Origin: Escherichia coli
GTDB taxonomy: Bacteria; Pseudomonadota; Gammaproteobacteria; Enterobacterales; Enterobacteriaceae
Length of the DNA stretch: 64,000 nucleotides
NCBI RefSeq assembly: GCF_022846255.1
Contig: NZ_AP025682.1
Direction: 5' to 3' (one strand)
In this document: one piece after another, positions 16,195 to 61,872 of the stretch
Numbering within the stretch: the stretch's first letter is position 1
Layout of the letters: each line of letters opens with the position of its first letter
Made by a program: the position numbers and the translations under genes
The notes under the pieces: model-generated
What the model was told of the DNA's origin: nothing
What the model saw: only the letters and a program-made list of their open reading frames with translations
The model's database searches: none

Positions 16195-16449
16195 TCACAT
16201 CTCGATTTCAATATCGCCTTTTGCCCGGCAACAACAGGGCAAAATTTCCCCCGGCTGAATAAAAGCTAACGGTTCGGCAATCCAGTCCACCTGGCCTGCG
16301 ACCAGTCGGGTGCGACAGGAGCCGCAGTAACCTTCGCGGCACTGGTACTCAACCGCCACATTGTGGGATTCCAGCGCCGCCAGAAGGGAAGGGTGTTCAT
16401 CCTGGCACAGCAGTTGTGTGCCAGTAATGCGCAGGGTAACGCGGGCCAT
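16195..16449 (-). CDS. yfaE: 2Fe-2S ferredoxin YfaE (NrdB cofactor maintenance), 84 aa
   Basis: Cys-rich ferredoxin; start overlaps nrdB stop by 1 nt (TGATG). Confidence 0.85.
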   Translation of the reverse strand: MARVTLRITGTQLLCQDEHPSLLAALESHNVAVEYQCREGYCGSCRTRLVAGQVDWIAEPLAFIQPGEILPCCCRAKGDIEIEM

Positions 16450-17579
16450 CAGAGCTGGAAGTTACTCAAATCGTCGGTGTCCACTTCCGCGTCAATCTGC
16501 CCGACCAGATAAGAACTGACTTCCACTTCCTGCGGAGCAACCTGCACGTTATCAGACACCAGCCAGGTGTTGATCCACGGGATCGGGTTGGAACGCGTCT
16601 GGAACGGCAGATCCAAACCGACTGCCTGCATACGGATATTGGTGATGTATTCAACGTACTGGCAGAGGATGTCTTTATTCAGACCAATCATCGAACCATC
16701 ACGGAACAGATAATCCGCCCAGTCTTTCTCTTGCTGTGCCGCCTGGACAAACAGGTCATAGCACTCCTGCTTACATTCTTCGGCAATTTCCGCCATCTCC
16801 GGATCATCCGCGCCGCTGCGCAGCAGATTCAGCATATGCTGGGTGCCGGTCAGGTGCAGGGCTTCGTCACGGGCAATCAGGCGAATAATCTTGGCGTTGC
16901 CTTCCATCAATTCGCGTTCTGCAAAGGCAAAGGAACAAGCAAAGCTGACGTAGAAACGAATCGCTTCCAGCGCGTTAACGCTCATCAGGCAGAGATACAG
17001 TTTTTTCTTCAGCTCGCGCAGGCTGACGGTCACGGTTTTACCGTTGACGGTGTGGGTGCCTTCGCCCAGCAAATGCCAGTAGCTGGTCATCTCGATCAGT
17101 TCATCGTAATAGCGGGAAATGCCTTCTGCGCGTTTCTGGATCTGCTCGTTAGTGACGATATCGTCAAACACAACCGACGGATCGTTAACGATATTACGAA
17201 TGATATGAGTATAGGAACGGGAATGAATCGTTTCTGAGAACGCCCAGGTTTCTACCCAGGTTTCCAGTTCCGGGATCGAGATCAGCGGCAGCAGTGCCAC
17301 GTTCGGACTGCGACCCTGAATGGAATCCAGCAGCGTCTGATATTTCAGGTTGCTGATAAAGATGTGTTTTTCGTGTTCAGGCAGTGCCTGGTAATCGATA
17401 CGGTCGCGGGAGACGTCAACTTCTTCCGGACGCCAGAAGAAAGAGAGCTGCTTTTCGATCAGCTTTTCGAAGATGTCATATTTTTGCTGATCGTAGCGAG
17501 CCACGTTGACCGGCTGACCAAAGAACATCGGTTCTTTGAGCTGATCATTTTTCGTCTGTGAAAAGGTGGTATATGCCAT
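16449..17579 (-). CDS. nrdB: Class Ia ribonucleotide reductase beta subunit, 376 aa
   Basis: Starts [17 protein letters not shown]; ORF-track start 17723 is an extension through REP sequence. Confidence 0.9.
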
Positions 17580-17602
17580 GAATGTGTCCTGTTGGGAGTT
17601 TA

Positions 17603-17718
17603 ATGCCGGATAAGGCATTTTACGCCGCATCCTGTGCCTGATGCGACGCTGGCGCATCTTATCAGGCCTACAAAACCGAGCCGTAGGCCGGATAAGGCGT
17701 TCACGCCGCATCCTGCAT
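17603..17718. repeat. REP/BIME cluster in nrdA-nrdB intergenic region
   Basis: gccggataaggc...gccgcatc and gcctgatgcgacgc...cttatcaggcctac palindromic REP units. Confidence 0.8.
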
Positions 17719-17725
17719 CTCAATA

Positions 17726-20011
17726 TCAGATCTTACATGCGCCGCTTTCGCAGCCATCGTCCTGGATTGACGGCACCAGATCGTCTTGTGCGTCTTCAGC
17801 ACCGTCACGGGTGTTCTGATAATACAGCGTTTTGACCCCGAATTTGTAGGCGGTGAGCAGGTCTTTCAGCAGTTGCTGCATCGGCACTTTTCCTGACGGG
17901 AAGCGTGACGGATCGTAGTTGGTGTTAGCAGAGATCGACTGATCGATAAATTTCTGCATGATACCCACCAGTTGCAGGTAGCCATCGTTACCCGGCATTT
18001 CCCACAGCAGTTCATAGGCGTCGTGCAGATGCTCGTAGTCCGGCACCACCTGGCGCAGAATACCGTCTTTCGACGCTTTGATGCTGACGTAACCACGCGG
18101 CGGTTCAATACCGTTAGTGGCGTTAGAGATCTGCGAAGAGGTCTCGGACGGCATCAGGGCAGAAAGCGTGGAGTTACGCAGGCCGTGCGTTTTGATTGAC
18201 TCACGCAGTGCTTCCCAGTCGTAATGCAGCGGCTCATTAGCGATGGCATCCAGATCTTTCTTATAGGTATCGATCGGCAGGATCCCTTTCGCGTAAGTGG
18301 TTTCGTTAAACCACGGGCACGCCCCTTGCTCTTTCGCCAGCTCATTAGACGCTTTCAGCAGGTAATACTGAATGGCTTCGAAGGTTTTATGCGTCAGGTT
18401 GTTGGCGCTGCCGTCGGAGTAGCGTTTACCATGCTTCGCCAGGTAGTAAGCGAAGTTGATCACACCAATACCCAGCGTACGACGACCCATCGCTCCACGT
18501 TTGGCGGCCGGGATCGGGTAATCCTGATAATCCAGCAGCGCGTCGAGTGCGCGTACTGCCAGAATTGCCAGCTCTTCCAGTTCATCCAGGCTGTTAATTG
18601 CGCCCAGGTTGAAAGCAGACAGCGTACACAGCGCGATTTCACCGTTCTCGTCGTTGACGTCGTTCAGCGGTTTGGTCGGCAGGGCGATTTCCAGGCACAG
18701 GTTAGACTGGCGCACTGGCGCGATGGCCGGATCAAACGGGCTATGGGTATTGCAGTGGTCAACGTTCTGAATATAGATACGACCGGTAGATGCACGTTCC
18801 TGCATCATCAGCGAGAACAGCTCAACGGCTTTCACACGCTGCTTGCGGATGCTGTCGTCTTTCTCATATTTGGTGTACAGGCGTTCAAACTCTTCCTGAT
18901 CGGCGAAGAACGCGTCGTACAGCCCCGGTACGTCGGACGGGCTGAATAGGGTGATATCTTCACCTTTCAGCAGACGGGTATACATCAGTTTGTTGATTTG
19001 TACCCCGTAGTCCATATGACGCACGCGGTTGCCTTCCACCCCACGGTTGTTTTTCAACACCAGCAGGCTTTCCACTTCCAGATGCCACATCGGGTAGAAC
19101 AGTGTTGCCGCACCGCCACGCACACCGCCCTGAGAGCAGGATTTCACCGCTGTCTGGAAATGTTTGTAGAACGGAATACAACCGGTATGGAACGCTTCGC
19201 CACCGCGAATCGGGCTACCCAGCGCACGAATACGCCCGGCGTTGATGCCGATCCCGGCACGCTGGGAAACGTATTTAACAATCGCGCTGGAGGTGGCGTT
19301 AATGGAATCCAGGCTGTCGCCGCACTCGATCAGCACGCATGAGCTGAACTGACGAGTCGGGGTACGCACGCCGGACATGATTGGCGTCGGCAGCGAAATT
19401 TTAAATGTGGAAACCGCGTCGTAAAAACGCTTCACGTATTGCAGGCGCGTTTCACGCGGGTAGTTCGAGAACAGGCACGCGGCAACCAGAATATAAAGGA
19501 ACTGGGCGCTTTCGTAGATTTCGCCGGTCACGCGGTTCTGTACCAGATATTTGCCTTCCAGCTGCTTAACGGCAGCATAAGAGAAGGTCATATCACGGTC
19601 GTGATCGATAAACGTGTCCATCTGCTTGAACTCTTCTTCCGTGTAGTCTTCCAGCAGATGATTATCGTATTTGCCCATCTCGACCATTTTCACCACATGG
19701 TCGTACAGTGCAGGCGGCTCAAACTGACCGTAGGCTTTTTTACGCAGGTGGAAGATCGCCAGACGTGCGGCGAGATACTGATAATCCGGCGCATCACGGG
19801 AGATCAGGTCTGCGGCAGCCTTGATAATGGTTTCGTGGATGTCAGAGGTCTTGATACCGTCATAAAACTGAATGTGGGAGCGCAGCTCGACCTGGGAAAT
19901 CGAAACGTTATGCAGTCCTTCTGCCGCCCAATCCAGAACGCGATGGATTTTGTCGAGATTGATGCGCTCTGTGCTACCGTCGCGCTTTGTCACCAGCAGA
20001 TTCTGATTCAT
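17726..20011 (-). CDS. nrdA: Class Ia ribonucleotide reductase alpha subunit, 761 aa
   Basis: 761 aa; ATP-cone N-terminus; C-terminal Cys pair. Confidence 0.95.
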
Positions 20012-20075
20012 GTATGTCGTACCTGTTTTTCAATAGCTTCATGCAGACTACCTGTAGTGAGGGAAGCTGCTAAGA

Positions 20076-20121
20076 ACACTATATATAGGGGGTATGTTTG
20101 GGATTCACTGCAAGATAGTGT
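20076..20121 (-). promoter_or_regulatory. Two candidate NrdR boxes in nrdAB leader/promoter
   Basis: acactatatataggg (20076-20091) and cactgcaagatagtgt (20106-20121) resemble the NrdR palindrome acaCwAtATaTwGtgt; centres ~30 bp apart. Confidence 0.5.
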
Positions 20122-20151
20122 GAAACTGGCCCTCTTGCAAGTGCATAACTT

Positions 20152-20160
20152 TGTGGATAA
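20152..20160 (-). promoter_or_regulatory. DnaA box upstream of nrdA
   Basis: Minus strand reads TTATCCACA, a perfect DnaA box. Confidence 0.65.
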
Positions 20161-20692
20161 CTCAGGAAGGAAAAAGTGGCTTCCGCGCACCTTAGGTCAG
20201 ACAAGGTGTCCGGGAAAGTCAATGGGAAGAGAAAAATTTGTTAAAAATAACCGTTCGGTGAATTCTTGAACGGTAAAATAGGATAGGTAAATTGATATAG
20301 ATGGTTTATTAATCTTGTTGCTAATGATTGCCAAAATTGATCTAGGCACAAGTCGTCACATAATCTGATGTATCAGTTGTGGTCAATATATAAGCGAGTG
20401 TAAGCGATTGTTGAGTCGGAAATGGTTGTTTTATATTCGGTTATTGTTAAATACTAAGCCAATTTGTTACTTTTGTATTTATTATAAGAATATTATTTAT
20501 TGCTTTAATTCAGTTTAAATATAACCGATTTACCTTAAAGTTATTAATTTGAATTGTGATGCATCTAAATTAATTATCAGATAATAACAAAATAGTTATT
20601 ACATCAGGGGCAGAATTTACAAAAGAAAAATACCCTATATCGCATAATGCGATTAAATACGCCATCTTATAGAAAATGATGGTTAGATGAAT

Positions 20693-28247: not shown

Positions 28248-35094
<6,847 letters not shown>

Positions 35095-41640: not shown

Positions 41641-41819
41641 TTATACATCCGCCGGATCGATACCGTATTCCTGGAGTTTATACATCAATGCACGGCGACT
41701 GATGCCCAGCATTAATGCAGTGCGGGTTCGGTTTCCTTCTTGTTGTTCCAGCACTTCCATAATGATGCGTTTTTCGACGCGTTTAATTTCCTCTTTTAAA
41801 TTACGCTCACCGACAGGGG
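41641..41819 (-). pseudogene. atoC: atoC 3' fragment (C-terminal HTH domain) separated from the rest of the gene by IS4
   Basis: Hand-translated in frame with the 5' part across the TSD: ...PVGERNLKEEIKRVEKRIIMEVLEQQEGNRTRTALMLGISRRALMYKLQEYGIDPADV*. Confidence 0.85.
41808..41819. repeat. IS4 target-site duplication, left copy (CACCGACAGGGG)
   Basis: Identical 12-mer directly flanks the other IS4 end at 43246-43257. Confidence 0.9.
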
Positions 41820-43245
41820 TAATGCCAGTCAGTTAAGCAACTGACTGGCTCTTTTTCGGGGCTGTGGGGTATTTCCAGGGCCTCTCCTTTACCACTCTCG
41901 GGAAGGCCCTTTCCCTTCTTGTCGGTAATTTCACAAGTTGTCCCATACTTGCAAGATCGCGCATCAGCTCCGGTATACGTCCCGGTGAAGCGCCCTGCAA
42001 TGTCATCAGCATTCTCATCACCATTCCACATGATTCTGAGAAACTCAGTTGATTCGGCCAGTAACCTTTCAGATGTTCCGCCATTTTAATCATCTGATAT
42101 CTCACCAGATTATAAGCCAGTAAGACACCCCACAGCTCTTGCTCCACAAGCTCCGGTTTTTTACTTCTCAGCGTCAGCCTGCTCAGTTGCATCGTCTGTT
42201 TTATCTCCCTGTATCCCAGTTCGATTTCCCAGCGATGACTGTACAGATCCGCCATTTCTCCTCCGGGGAAGCGCATGGCGTCCGTCATCGACGTCAGCAG
42301 ATGGCAGACTTTTCCTTTGCGCGTCACGGTCAGCAGGCGGGCTGTCACTTCATTTCCCAGTCCCGGCCACTTTTTTCGTGCCTGCGGGCTGGTTTTCAGC
42401 TTCACCAGATGATCGCCTTTACCCAGTTTTCTGATCTCTTCATATTGCGCTCCCTTTCTGAGAGGTATCATCCAGTGGCGGTGTTCTCCCGCCAGGCTCC
42501 AGGCATTTAACAGTCCCAGTGAGTAATAACCTTTATCCATTAACGTCAGAGTGTTATCGCCGGTTTGTTCTATAAGTTGCTCAGCAAGCTCATTTTCGCT
42601 GTTCTTCATCGTGCCGAAGGCTGCAGCCGTCAGCAGATGGCTGGTCAGTTCCATCTGGCAGACCATTTTGACCTGCGGGTAGAGCGCCGGGTTCCCGGCA
42701 TGTGTCTGGCGGGGGAAGGCTGCATCGTTCTCTGGTGTATCCGGTGTGCGCCAGAACACACCATCGATGGCCAGCAGGGTCAGGCCGCACCAGTGCGGAT
42801 GCGGCGTGGCGTTATGCCAGAGCTGCGCTGTTTTCGTGAACACGCGGCGGACAGCCTCACTTCCCAGGCGCTGGCGGGCCTGAATAACGGCACTGGGGGC
42901 AACGAAGGGGCGATTGCCCGGCAGCATGATGTCCAGGCGATTCACAATCTGGTGAAGAGGTTCTTTACGCTCAAGCGCCATGCCAACAATACACCAGACC
43001 ATCATTTCGAGGGGAAGACGGCGCTTGCGTAGCGTTACAGTACCTGATTCGGCAAGGCAACGAGAGATGAGTTCGGGGTCGAGGTAATCCCCCAGAGAAG
43101 TCAGTGGGTTACGCAGAGAATCGTAACGGGATACCAGATCAAGAGCCTGTCCAATGTGCATAAAAAAATCCGGAAACAAGTGAGCGTTTCCGGATTCTTA
43201 CACAGCCACTGGATCGGTCAACTGATCCTTAACTGATCGGCATTA
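41820..43245 (-). mobile_element. IS4 insertion sequence, complete (1426 bp)
   Basis: Terminal inverted repeats TAATGCCAGTCAGTTAAG / TAATGCCGATCAGTTAAG (16/18 match); 1426 bp between them; single 442-aa IS4-family transposase; flanked by 12-bp direct repeat. Confidence 0.9.
41833..43161 (-). CDS. insG: IS4 transposase InsG, 442 aa
   Basis: Starts [16 protein letters not shown]; the ORF-track 448-aa version begins 6 codons upstream. Confidence 0.9.
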
Positions 43246-44464
43246 CACCGACAGGGGCTGTTTTTGCCTCACCAGCATTACAGACTGGCTGACGAATCTG
43301 CGGCGGAAGATCCTCAGAGAAAATGATCGGGCCTGAGTTCATCACGACGGCGCGTTCAATGACGTTGGAAAGCTCTCGAATATTACCCGGCCATGACCAG
43401 GCGGTAAGCAGCGACATTGCCATCGGATCGATGTCGATAATATCGCGCTGATTCTCACTACTGAATTTTTGCAAAAAGTGATTAGCTAACAGGGAAATAT
43501 CTTCCCGGCGATCGCGCAGAGGCGGCAGTATTAAATGAATAACGTTAAGGCGATAAAAGAGATCTTCACGGAAGGTGCCTTCTTTCACCATTGCCTGCAA
43601 GTCGCGGTTGGTGGCAGCAATGATGCGGATATCAACTTTTATGGTCTGATGACCGCCAATCCGTTCAAATTCCCGTTCCTGCAGAATGCGTAGTAATTTG
43701 GCTTGCAGTACCAGCGGCATTTCGCCAATTTCGTCGAGGAGCAGAGTACCTTCGTTGGCACGTTCAAATAATCCCTGACGTAAGGTTTGTGCACCAGTAA
43801 ATGCGCCTTTTTCATGACCAAACAGTTCACTTTCGAGCAACGATTCCGGCAGCGCCGCGCAGTTGACTTTAATGAACGGCCCCTTTGCCCTCCGCGAATT
43901 GTAGTGAATCGCTCTGGCAATCAACTCTTTCCCGGTGCCGCTTTCACCGCTAATCAAGACGCTGGCCTGAGAAAGGGCAATTTTGGCGGTGTCTTTGCAG
44001 ATGTCCATCATCGCCGGGCTGTTGGTGAGAATGTGCCCCCATTGCCAGCTGGTGCTCAGTGCCTGGTGCAGATGACGGATCTCTTTTTTCATTGACTGGA
44101 GTTGTAAAGCGCGCTGAACGATTAAATTCAACTCATCGAGATCAAACGGTTTGATAACATAGTCGAAGGCTCCGCAGCGTAGTGCTTCGACGGCGGTTTC
44201 CACTTCAGCATAGGCCGTCATCAGAATAACGGGTGTCCGGGTCTCATGGCTGCGCATCTCCTTGAGTGCCTTGATGCCGTCCATCTCTGGCATGCGGATA
44301 TCCATCAACACCACGTCAGGGTGAATATCGGCAAACAGGTGTAATGCTGTGCGCCCGTTGTTCGCACAATGTGTTTCGAATCCTTGTAGTGCAAAAGCGG
44401 TGCTCAGCATACGGCGAACATTATCTTCATCATCCACAATAAGGATGCGATTAATAGCAGTCAT
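43229..44464 (-). pseudogene. atoC: atoC 5' part: receiver plus sigma-54 AAA+ domains, truncated by IS4 (406 native codons + VMPIS from the IS end)
   Basis: ORF of 411 aa ends 17 nt inside the IS4 terminal repeat; GESGTGKE Walker A and GAFTGA motif present; HTH absent. Confidence 0.85.
43246..43257. repeat. IS4 target-site duplication, right copy (CACCGACAGGGG)
   Basis: Identical to 41808-41819. Confidence 0.9.
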
Positions 44465-49303: not shown

Positions 49304-49497
49304 GACGGATAAGGCGTTTACGCCGCATCTGGCATTCAGTGCAAATGCCAGATGCGACGCTGACGTGTCTTATCTGGCCTACTTTAATGTAATCTGTTGA
49401 AATAATGGGAATCGTAGGACGGATAAGGCGTTTACGCCGCATCCGGCAATCGGTGCAAATGCCAGATAAGACACTAACGCGTCTTATCTGGCCTACA
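49304..49497. repeat. REP/BIME cluster between convergent rcsC and rcsB
   Basis: Two copies of cgtaggacggataaggcgtttacgccgcatc (about 49297 and 49412) plus inverted partners ending cttatctggcctac. Confidence 0.8.
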
Positions 49498-53153: not shown

Positions 53154-53246
53154 AAAAAAAACCGGATGCGAGGCATCCGGTTGAAATAGGGGTAAACAGA
53201 CATTCAGAAATGAATGACGGTAATAAATAAAGTTAATGATGATAGC
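53154..53246 (-). ncRNA. micF: MicF antisense sRNA (93 nt), repressor of ompF translation
   Basis: Minus strand reads GCTATCATCATTAACTTTATTTATTACCGTCATTCATTTCTGAATGTCTGTTTACCCCTATTTCAACCGGATGCCTCGCATCCGGTTTTTTTT, ending in a hairpin plus U8 terminator; divergent from ompC. Confidence 0.9.
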
Positions 53247-53401
53247 GGGAGATATTCTAGTTGCGAGTGAAGGTTTTGTTTTGACATTCAGTGCTGTCAA
53301 ATACTTAAGAATAAGTTATTGATTTTAACCTTGAATTATTATTGCTTGATGTTAGGTGCTTATTTCGCCATTCCGCAATAATCTTAAAAAGTTCCCTTAT
53401 A

Positions 53402-61383: not shown

Positions 61384-61872
61384 TTAGCGAACTACCGCGT
61401 TGTCAATTTTCTCTTCCGCCTTCCAGACGCGGTACTTCACATCTACATTGTCTGGCGTATACACCACGATCGGCAGCTTGCTGTTATAACGCAGCATTCC
61501 GGCATCGCCCAGATACGCGGTGACAAATTTCTTCTCTTTCTTGCCATCCGGGCAGGCCATCATCGTCGAAACCGGGGAACTGACTTTATCAAAGACATAA
61601 TAATCATAGCCCCAGCCTTCCAGCGTTTTGCTTTCCAGCTTCCCGCCGAGACGATGCAAATTGCAATCGACTTCCAGCGTCTGGCCGATTAACAGTTCTA
61701 CTTTCAGGGTAGATTCATCTTCTTGCGGGGTTAACTGAATCACCTGGCGCTTCATGCCTTTTTCAGCTTGTGGATAAGGTGCGATTTTTTCCAGTGGCTG
61801 GACGCTTTCTGCCGCCCAGGCGGAAGTGGTGGCGAAAGCGGCAAACAATACTGCAGGTAGAATGGTCTTCAT
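61384..61872 (-). CDS. eco: Ecotin, periplasmic serine protease inhibitor, 162 aa
   Basis: Starts [20 protein letters not shown]; ORF-track start 61893 is an extension. Confidence 0.9.

Follow-up and report, generated by a model that had tools for sequence, protein, structure and literature searches.

DnaA and NrdR boxes at the nrdAB promoter of Escherichia coli and their arrangement in related species

The minus-strand region 20045-20160 of an Escherichia coli chromosome segment of 64,000 nucleotides (contig NZ_AP025682.1; the whole of this stretch is referred to as the window) is very probably the core promoter and operator of nrdAB-yfaE. The control of nrdAB by DnaA and NrdR through this region is already known from the literature, and the residual novelty of the present analysis is a comparative side result on related species. 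The corresponding promoter of strain K-12, nrdAp, was characterised by Tuggle & Fuchs 1986, Augustin et al. 1994, Jacobson & Fuchs 1998, Olliver et al. 2010, Torrents et al. 2007, and Rozman Grinberg et al. 2025.

The NrdR boxes were found at the promoter of the ribonucleotide reductase operon, with nrdA and nrdB immediately downstream. Since both genes lie on the minus strand, all promoter features are read from high to low coordinates. They are listed below in that order, with positions relative to the transcription start in brackets.

20230-20686, no strand: divergent nrdA/yfaL intergenic region, AT-rich (18-35% GC)
20183-20213, minus strand: inverted repeat CCGGACACCTT-9 nt-AAGGTGCGCGG upstream of the DnaA boxes, 11-nt arms, 82% complementary
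20152-20160, minus strand: perfect, high-affinity DnaA box TTATCCACA, exact consensus (-54 to -46)
20140-20148, minus strand: second, weaker DnaA box TTATGCACT, 7/9 matches (-42 to -34)
20135-20140, minus strand: -35 hexamer TTGCAA, 4/6 consensus matches (-34 to -29)
20108-20123, minus strand: NrdR box 0 TCACACTATCTTGCAG, the classical upstream box, 5/6 core positions with C at position 6 (-17 to -2)
20112-20117, minus strand: -10 hexamer TATCTT, 4/6 consensus matches, inside NrdR box 0 (-11 to -6)
20106, minus strand: nrdAB-yfaE transcription start, transferred from K-12 position 2,344,757 (+/-1-2 nt)
20012-20105, minus strand: remainder of the nrdA 5' leader (the leader is 95 nt long, and its first base is the start at 20106)
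20076-20091, minus strand: high-affinity NrdR box 1 CCCCTATATATAGTGT, 6/6 core positions (+16 to +31)
20045-20060, minus strand: NrdR box 2 TCACTACAGGTAGTCT, 5/6 core positions (G9), outside the range flagged in the first-pass annotation (+47 to +62)
17726-20011, minus strand: nrdA, class Ia ribonucleotide reductase alpha, 761 aa (NF006578, 1644 bits; cutoff 813)
16449-17579, minus strand: nrdB, class Ia ribonucleotide reductase beta, 376 aa (NF006576, 807 bits; cutoff 346)

The segment 19900-20700 of the window matched CFT073, Nissle 1917, ABU 83972, and further strains at 100% identity; in these strains the flanking genes are annotated as nrdA and yfaL. Outside the promoter the flanks showed 97-98.9% identity to CFT073, and the window strain is therefore different from CFT073. 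Collinearity and full identity of the window with CFT073 were ruled out by these flanks and by a 1.4-kb IS4 insertion in the window. Of 5426 complete E. coli genomes, 5425 contained the core 126 bp of the promoter, with at least 95% identity in nearly all cases. The gene for the repressor itself, nrdR (ybaD), is encoded at another chromosomal locus in E. coli.

K-12 nrdAp was shown to be the same locus, and the DnaA double box, the -35 and -10 hexamers, box 0 and box 1 are base-for-base identical between the two. Over the stretch running from the inverted repeat through box 1, the window departs from K-12 only at one base of the repeat and at two of the spacer between -35 and -10. The window carries the allele common to CFT073 and Nissle 1917, which further downstream differs from K-12 by one substitution in the linker between boxes 1 and 2. 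Box 2 starts with TC in the window and with GT in K-12 (where box 2 is GTACTACAGGTAGTCT), and TC gives one more match to the consensus. The nrdA leader of the window is without 13 bp, CGGAAAGAATTCC, found in K-12 (95 nt vs 108 nt), and the start codon of K-12 ypaB is absent from the window. The literature places an upstream AT-rich element in the nrdA-yfaL intergenic region, and effects of Fis, IciA, and H-NS on the nrdAB promoter are named in PMC4009431 and PMC8203912. A '45-bp inverted repeat' has been implicated in the cell-cycle control of nrd (PMC2500167); by an equation of the two that we infer, the repeat at 20183-20213 is probably its core.

The hexamers TTGCAA and TATCTT were found 17 bp apart with a combined score of 8/12, so that a generic promoter scanner with a cut-off of 9/12 misses the nrdA promoter. 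This was the case for the consensus scanner used here, and its 4 hits in the AT-rich spacer were at chance level (3.9 expected). Such weak hexamers fit an activator-dependent promoter. The start of nrdA-nrdB-yfaE at K-12 position 2,344,757 was taken from the SMRT-Cappable-seq supplement of PMC6131387, whereas the Cappable-seq supplement of PMC4782308 contained no entry for the nrdA locus. As the start was measured in K-12, it was brought to position 20106 of the window through an alignment of K-12 and the window. The placement of TATCTT agreed with this mapped start, and the nrdA ATG falls at +96. In the older literature, 110 nt separate the start from the K-12 ATG downstream, 2 nt off the value used here. 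Comparison with a mapped start had been proposed in the first-pass annotation as a check, and with the K-12 start every box falls within either promoter or leader. An Rfam scan of the nrdA leader gave no family matches.

The perfect DnaA box was found exactly where the first-pass annotation had located it. It forms the upstream half of a pair, TTATCCACA-aag-TTATGCACT, in direct orientation with a 3-bp gap, which abuts the -35 hexamer in such a way that the last T of TTATGCACT is the first T of TTGCAA. Three perfect copies of TTATCCACA were present in the 64-kb window (0.27 expected), a number reached in none of 100 shuffles. The other two copies (33525 and 61769) lie inside genes and lack a partner box, and the nrdA pair is the sole double DnaA box with at most two mismatches in total in the window. 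The 23-mer gTTATCCACAaagTTATGCACTt is identical to the 'double DnaA box' of K-12 nrdA, which lies under a DnaA ChIP-seq peak with 14-fold coverage and at which mutation of either box disrupted DnaA binding (PMC11317965). According to the same study, DnaA generally requires two boxes 2-3 bp apart, and just 13 of the 32 perfect single boxes of K-12 are bound in vivo. For annotation purposes, the DnaA site of nrdA is better recorded as a double box.

The nrdA pair resembles the other sites described by Stringer, Fitzgerald & Wade 2024 (polA, purH, mioC, DARS2, dnaA, and rpoH) in that it consists of two direct 9-mers 3 bp apart, one of them perfect, at a promoter; nrdA itself is included in Table 1 of that paper. 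It differs in polarity: at nrdA the perfect box is upstream and the weak box lies over the -35, whereas most of these sites have the perfect box downstream.

For the NrdR boxes, the consensus acaCwAtATaTwGtgt with the core C4, A6, A8, T9, T11, and G13 has been published (PMC4009431), and two scores were used. A consensus-weighted score was built from the consensus and the six highly conserved positions (PMC4009431; bioRxiv 2026.05.11.724285), and an independent log-odds matrix was trained solely on 57 boxes from other clades plus those of E. coli nrdHIEF and nrdDG. By the consensus-weighted score, box 1 was the best 16-mer in the 64 kb. Boxes 1+2 scored 36 as a pair and boxes 0+1 scored 35, compared to 28 for the next best pair in the 64 kb and 33 for the best pair in 200 dinucleotide shuffles, none of which reached the observed value. 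By the matrix, boxes 1, 0, and 2 ranked 1st (18.6 bits), 3rd (8.9 bits), and 6th (8.2 bits) among 63,985 positions; the pairs 0+1 and 1+2 scored 27.4 and 26.7 bits, and the next best pair 3.5 bits. Such a matrix scan had been suggested beforehand as a check, and these extreme scores bear out the call of NrdR sites. The six-position core pattern CNANATNTNG was not enriched in the window (14 found vs 16.9 expected). As the core pattern alone is at chance, the signal sits in the full boxes and their phasing.

The linker between boxes 0 and 1 is 16 bp, which corresponds to 32 bp from centre to centre and agrees with the three helical turns claimed in the first-pass annotation; the linker between boxes 1 and 2 is 15 bp. 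The same annotation had described boxes 0 and 1 as two 16-bp NrdR-like palindromes. Their likeness to NrdR boxes stands (five and six of the six core positions), but 'palindromic' is generous for box 0, in which only three of the eight symmetric position pairs are complementary. In box 1, the inner 10 bp are a perfect palindrome.

NrdR represses nrdAB via boxes at the nrdAB promoter (PMC12176259; PMC4009431). The pair formed by boxes 0 and 1 is the classical annotation (Rodionov & Gelfand 2005; Torrents 2007), and one 2025 preprint continues to take it as the operator (bioRxiv 10.1101/2025.03.28.645925). With K-12 probes, a different pair was shown to be bound in vitro (Rozman Grinberg et al. 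2025; PMC12176259). NrdR-ATP-dATP bound the box 1+2 probe with a KD of 113 nM, comparable to nrdHIEF (138 nM) and nrdDG (160 nM), while the KD for the box 0+1 probe (57-58-mer) was >6000 nM and NrdR with ATP alone did not bind. The box 1+2 segment of the window differs from the tested K-12 probe at 3 of 57 positions. In gel shifts with a 185-bp probe, for which PMC12176259 cites Torrents 2007, mutation of box 0 made no change and mutation of box 1 abolished the shift. The failure of box 0 has been attributed to C6, with C6A giving 10-fold tighter binding, while the central AG of box 2 is tolerated; binding requires two boxes and a 15-16 bp linker (bioRxiv 2026.05.11.724285). A NrdR tetramer that carries dATP together with either ATP or ADP binds boxes three turns apart and bends the DNA (PMC12176259; bioRxiv 2026.05.11.724285).

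The box set of the first-pass annotation needs some revision: its two NrdR boxes are the classical pair 0+1, but the DnaA unit is a pair and the NrdR pair bound in vitro is 1+2, which extends beyond the flagged coordinates. The NrdR operator is better recorded as three boxes, 20045-20123, and a three-box operator is possible. Which pair works in vivo is contested.

The other E. coli NrdR operators, nrdHIEF and nrdDG, and those of nrdAB and nrdRJ in Streptomyces coelicolor consist, like that of E. coli nrdAB, of pairs of 16-bp partially palindromic boxes with C4 and G13, a 15-16 bp linker and binding by the NrdR tetramer with ATP and dATP. Unlike these operators, E. coli nrdAB has three in-phase boxes instead of two, its in-vitro-bound pair lies wholly downstream of the start, and its box 0 carries the non-canonical C6.

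For a comparison between species, representative genomes were scanned with a degenerate pattern for the N-terminal coding sequence of nrdA, which leaves the promoter unbiased, and 120 loci were recovered. Anchoring on box 1 gave an essentially gapless alignment of about 70 species of Enterobacterales, Vibrionales, and Aeromonas. A row-by-row listing was used for the upstream DnaA box, which was blurred in the column-conservation profile by 1-bp offsets between species. The DnaA box, the -35, the -10 with box 0, and box 1 were shown to be phylogenetic footprints in an intergenic region that has otherwise diverged across these ~70 species. Box 1 was present in all sampled species. In 64 of 68 species, box 0 kept C4, A8, T9, T11, and G13 at a 16-bp linker, none of the 64 having A6; in the remaining four species the linker between boxes 0 and 1 was 15 bp. 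Five of six core positions at the place of box 2 were found only in Escherichia (E. coli and E. albertii, which keep the core CTACnnGTAG), Rouxiella, and Aeromonas, and several other type U Enterobacterales keep an ACTA(C) half-site there. A perfect TTATCCACA was found near nrdA in about 64 of 72 sequences of Enterobacterales, Vibrionales, and Aeromonas, at two alternative positions.

These two positions correspond to two architectures, U and D. In type U, a second DnaA-like box adjoins TTGCAA, with TTATCCACA upstream of this second box, and box 0 encloses the -10 TATCTT. TTGCAA is conserved in type U species, and CACTATCTTG, which contains TATCTT, is invariant there. This type was found in Yersinia, Serratia, Rahnella, Hafnia, Edwardsiella, Photorhabdus, Xenorhabdus, Proteus, Budvicia, Dickeya, and Brenneria, and also in Vibrio, Photobacterium, Aeromonas, and Escherichia; the perfect box is 3 bp from the second box in Escherichia and about 13 bp from it in the other type U species. 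Type D was found in Citrobacter, Enterobacter, Kosakonia, Pluralibacter, Cedecea, Shimwellia, 'Escherichia sp. ESNIH1', Pantoea, Erwinia, Tatumella, Mixta, and Pectobacterium. Its elements follow in the order TTGTAC-16-TAGAAT, ACTCACCATATAGCGT, a 16-bp linker, box 1, and TTATCCACAgagTTAGTCACA, with an inverted TGTGGATAA about 30 bp further on; TTGTAC-16-TAGAAT is the predicted promoter of this type.

Type D promoters thus share with E. coli a box 0-like element, the 16-bp linker, box 1, and a double DnaA box with a 3-bp gap. They differ from E. coli in that the double box TTATCCACAgagTTAGTCACA lies immediately 3' of box 1, in the predicted leader, and is followed by the inverted third box, and in that there is neither a DnaA box upstream of the -35 nor a box 2. 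The architecture in Salmonella was deduced solely from the remark that its first annotated box adjoins the -10 (PMC2892513).

Among the Enterobacteriaceae and Erwiniaceae sampled, most have the DnaA double box in the predicted leader rather than ahead of the -35.

A limited literature search gave no description of the U/D dichotomy. As a tentative reading, which we regard as possible though far from established, nrdAB of E. coli may have a promoter that is unusual within its family in two respects. One is an in-phase NrdR array of three boxes, with a widely conserved but uniformly 'weakened' box 0 and a near-Escherichia-specific box 2. The other is a DnaA double box upstream of the -35, a position shared with Yersinia, Serratia, and Vibrio, where the other sampled Enterobacteriaceae and Erwiniaceae, and also Pectobacterium, have it in the predicted leader right behind box 1.

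Chance alone is an explanation that we regard as already refuted for the DnaA and NrdR motifs. It would make them matches with no regulatory role, and it could draw on the chance frequency of the six-position NrdR core, on the two partnerless intragenic DnaA boxes elsewhere in the window and on the low share of perfect boxes bound in K-12. Against it, the NrdR pair and triple scored above all 200 shuffles, with matrix ranks of 1st, 3rd, and 6th, the promoter elements are deeply conserved across species, and the identical DNA has proved to be a target of DnaA in vivo and of NrdR in vitro. The regulation of nrdAB by DnaA and NrdR that was suggested in the first-pass annotation is likewise supported by the K-12 ChIP-seq data on the identical 23-mer and by the published repression by NrdR. 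The re-finding of this region validates motif recognition from sequence alone and adds nothing new on the region itself.

The role of box 0 has to be weighed more carefully. According to the classical operator model, NrdR in the cell uses boxes 0+1 and occludes the -10 and the start, and box 2 is accessory or an in-vitro curiosity. We consider this unlikely for E. coli, where the two probes differ so widely in KD, where the gel shift with the 185-bp probe depended on box 1 and was indifferent to box 0, and where C6 replaces the conserved A at a 10-fold cost that C6A recovers. Yet the matrix places box 0 3rd of 63,985 positions and the pair 0+1 slightly above 1+2, and the five core positions of box 0 are kept at exact spacing in nearly all of the Enterobacterales and Vibrionales species compared (64/68). 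They are kept even where the predicted -10 (TAGAAT) falls outside the box, in species that are without box 2. In Salmonella, mutation of either annotated box gave higher expression of nrdAB-lacZ, although the effects of the box-1 mutant were perhaps due to promoter damage according to the authors (PMC2892513), and recent work still takes 0+1 as the operator (bioRxiv 10.1101/2025.03.28.645925). Since box 0 is backed by evolution and box 2 by E. coli biochemistry, the classical model is kept as a live rival. The opposite view, that box 0 is no NrdR site and owes its likeness to selection on the -10 and on an AT-rich start region flanked by C/G, seems improbable to us. The conserved core CACTATCTTG does contain the -10 TATCTT in E. 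coli and other type U species, and in-vitro binding to 0+1 was not measurable; but in type D the best predicted promoter, TTGTAC-16-TAGAAT, ends just upstream of the box 0-like element, and ACTCACCATATAGCGT still matches at the same five core positions and stands at the same distance of 16 bp from box 1.

On the reading of 20045-20160 as the nrdAB-yfaE promoter and operator, control may be pictured as follows, with DnaA occupancy, NrdR affinities, and nucleotide dependence carried over from the K-12 literature by analogy. A weak sigma-70 promoter, TTGCAA-17-TATCTT, would initiate transcription near 20106. DnaA, probably as a dimer, would cooperatively occupy the double box at -54 to -34, its downstream half touching the -35. 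Whether DnaA acts at nrdAB as activator or repressor is still debated (PMC2500167; PMC8203912). At low occupancy (DnaA-ADP or little DnaA-ATP), DnaA may aid the binding of RNA polymerase, and at high DnaA-ATP the complex would repress, presumably by keeping polymerase off the promoter; this follows the published model, in which RNA polymerase is stabilised by DnaA-ADP, or by DnaA-ATP at low levels, on the high-affinity boxes, and high DnaA-ATP represses, presumably by occlusion (PMC8203912). Such control would link dNTP synthesis to the chromosome's initiation state. The NrdR pair used in vitro, box 1 (+16 to +31) and box 2 (+47 to +62), would lie in the early transcribed region. When dATP is plentiful, NrdR at box 1 would lie directly against the polymerase footprint at its downstream edge and prevent open-complex formation or escape, a steric mechanism that we infer from the positions of the boxes. 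Box 0, over the -10 and the start, would be a third box, conserved and in helical phase with the others but weak in itself, and any role of it in E. coli is likewise put forward conditionally.

The region is a textbook example of dNTP supply coupled, via DnaA, to replication initiation and, via NrdR, to the dATP/ATP balance. The comparison between species sharpens the live disagreement over the physiological NrdR pair. If the atypical position of E. coli is true and unreported, conclusions drawn in E. coli, such as DnaA as an activator and boxes 1+2 as the operator, may not transfer to its closest relatives. In the type D relatives, DnaA would then act from a downstream site as a repressor or roadblock, and boxes 0+1 would be the pair left to NrdR.

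Comparison of the nrdA upstream regions from species-representative genomes (loci L003–L122) with window 20045–20160 divided the promoters into two alternative layouts. In type U, the DnaA boxes were found 5′ of the −35 element, and this layout was present in Escherichia, Yersiniaceae, Hafniaceae, Morganellaceae, Budviciaceae, Dickeya, Brenneria, Vibrionaceae and Aeromonas. In type D, the predicted leader carries a double DnaA box (TTATCCACAgagTTAGTCACA) directly 3′ of NrdR box 1, together with a third, inverted box. This second layout was found in Erwiniaceae, Pectobacterium and the sampled Enterobacteriaceae other than Escherichia. With respect to DnaA box placement, Escherichia (type U) differed from all other sampled Enterobacteriaceae (type D).

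Part of the nrdA promoter was also found on mobile elements. When window 20040–20165 was used as query, 217 E. coli plasmid records matched only the double DnaA box and the −35 element (query positions 3–44), with approximately 93% identity over 42 nt (gagTTATCCACAaagTTATGCACTTGCAAcggggccattttc). One example lies next to genes annotated as DNA polymerase III subunit theta and a HumD family polymerase:

L124 (plasmid pAPSLC-111K locus) 1470–1545: segment matching the nrdA promoter

This theta and HumD gene pair resembles that of phage P1. In phages P1, P7 and SJ46, a segment with approximately 80% similarity was detected. NrdR boxes were absent there.

Elsewhere in the window, two perfect DnaA boxes (TTATCCACA) and a single strong NrdR-like box (TCACATTATATGGTGC) were found, all placed within genes by mapping to CFT073:

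33525–33533, minus strand: perfect DnaA box, intragenic in an alpha-2-macroglobulin-family gene
61769–61777, minus strand: perfect DnaA box, intragenic in eco
28671–28686: NrdR-like box within a yfaA-like ORF, 13.8 bits, rank 2 in the window

No second DnaA box was found 2–3 bp from either of the two DnaA boxes. Since DnaA generally needs two boxes at this spacing (PMC11317965), binding of DnaA to these unpartnered sites would be unlikely, judged from their sequence. The NrdR-like box had no in-phase partner and is probably a chance match.

Alignment of window 13943–64000 with CFT073 showed a mosaic identity pattern. A stretch of 801 bp over the nrdA promoter and the start of yfaL was 100% identical to both CFT073 and Nissle 1917, and the flanking blocks showed 97.0–98.9% identity to CFT073. 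Across E. coli, the whole spacer was unusually variable, roughly half the records showing 80–90% identity, compared to 95% or more for the core 126 bp of the promoter. An insertion relative to CFT073 was found in the 3′ part of atoC (mapping to CFT073), encoding an IS4-family transposase of 448 aa that matches Pfam Nterm_IS4 and DDE_Tnp_1:

41819–43246: 1.4-kb IS4 insertion, with an overlap of approximately 12 bp at the junction

The nrdA leader was 95 nt long in the window compared to 108 nt in K-12, and 13 bp of the K-12 leader (CGGAAAGAATTCC; 833–845 of the K-12 upstream locus L002) were missing at window position ~20025–20035. This segment was likewise missing in CFT073, but E. albertii and a further strain of E. 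coli carry it. The K-12 annotation places a small ORF antisense to this promoter:

20126–20269, plus strand: ypaB, 47-aa ORF across the −35 element and the DnaA boxes

The ATG of K-12 ypaB was replaced by CTG in the window (on the nrdA strand, gggtCATttt to gggcCAGttt), while the reading frame remains open far upstream, which argues against ypaB as a conserved gene. An Rfam scan of the nrdA leader matched no RNA family; RNA families found in the window were:

53154–53247, minus strand: MicF sRNA, 116.8 bits
49303–49379 and 49417–49493, plus strand: two copies of naRNA4/CssrE

Besides the main nrdA start, SMRT-Cappable-seq of K-12 listed two 'novel' internal starts of nrdB-yfaE transcripts, at 2,347,063 and 2,347,351 (PMC6131387). 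These positions fall at the 3′ end of nrdA and within the spacer that separates it from nrdB (approximately window 17550–17820). This spacer varies in length by strain, with ~146 bp in the window, 189 bp in CFT073 and presumably 233 bp in K-12.

Within the promoter, five core positions of NrdR box 0 (window 20108–20123), namely C4, A8, T9, T11 and G13, were kept in 64 of the 68 species at loci L003–L122, and none of these 64 had the consensus A at position 6. In published mutagenesis, a base other than A at this position carried an approximately 10-fold affinity cost (bioRxiv 2026.05.11.724285). Box 0 looks like a conserved, deliberately weak NrdR box.
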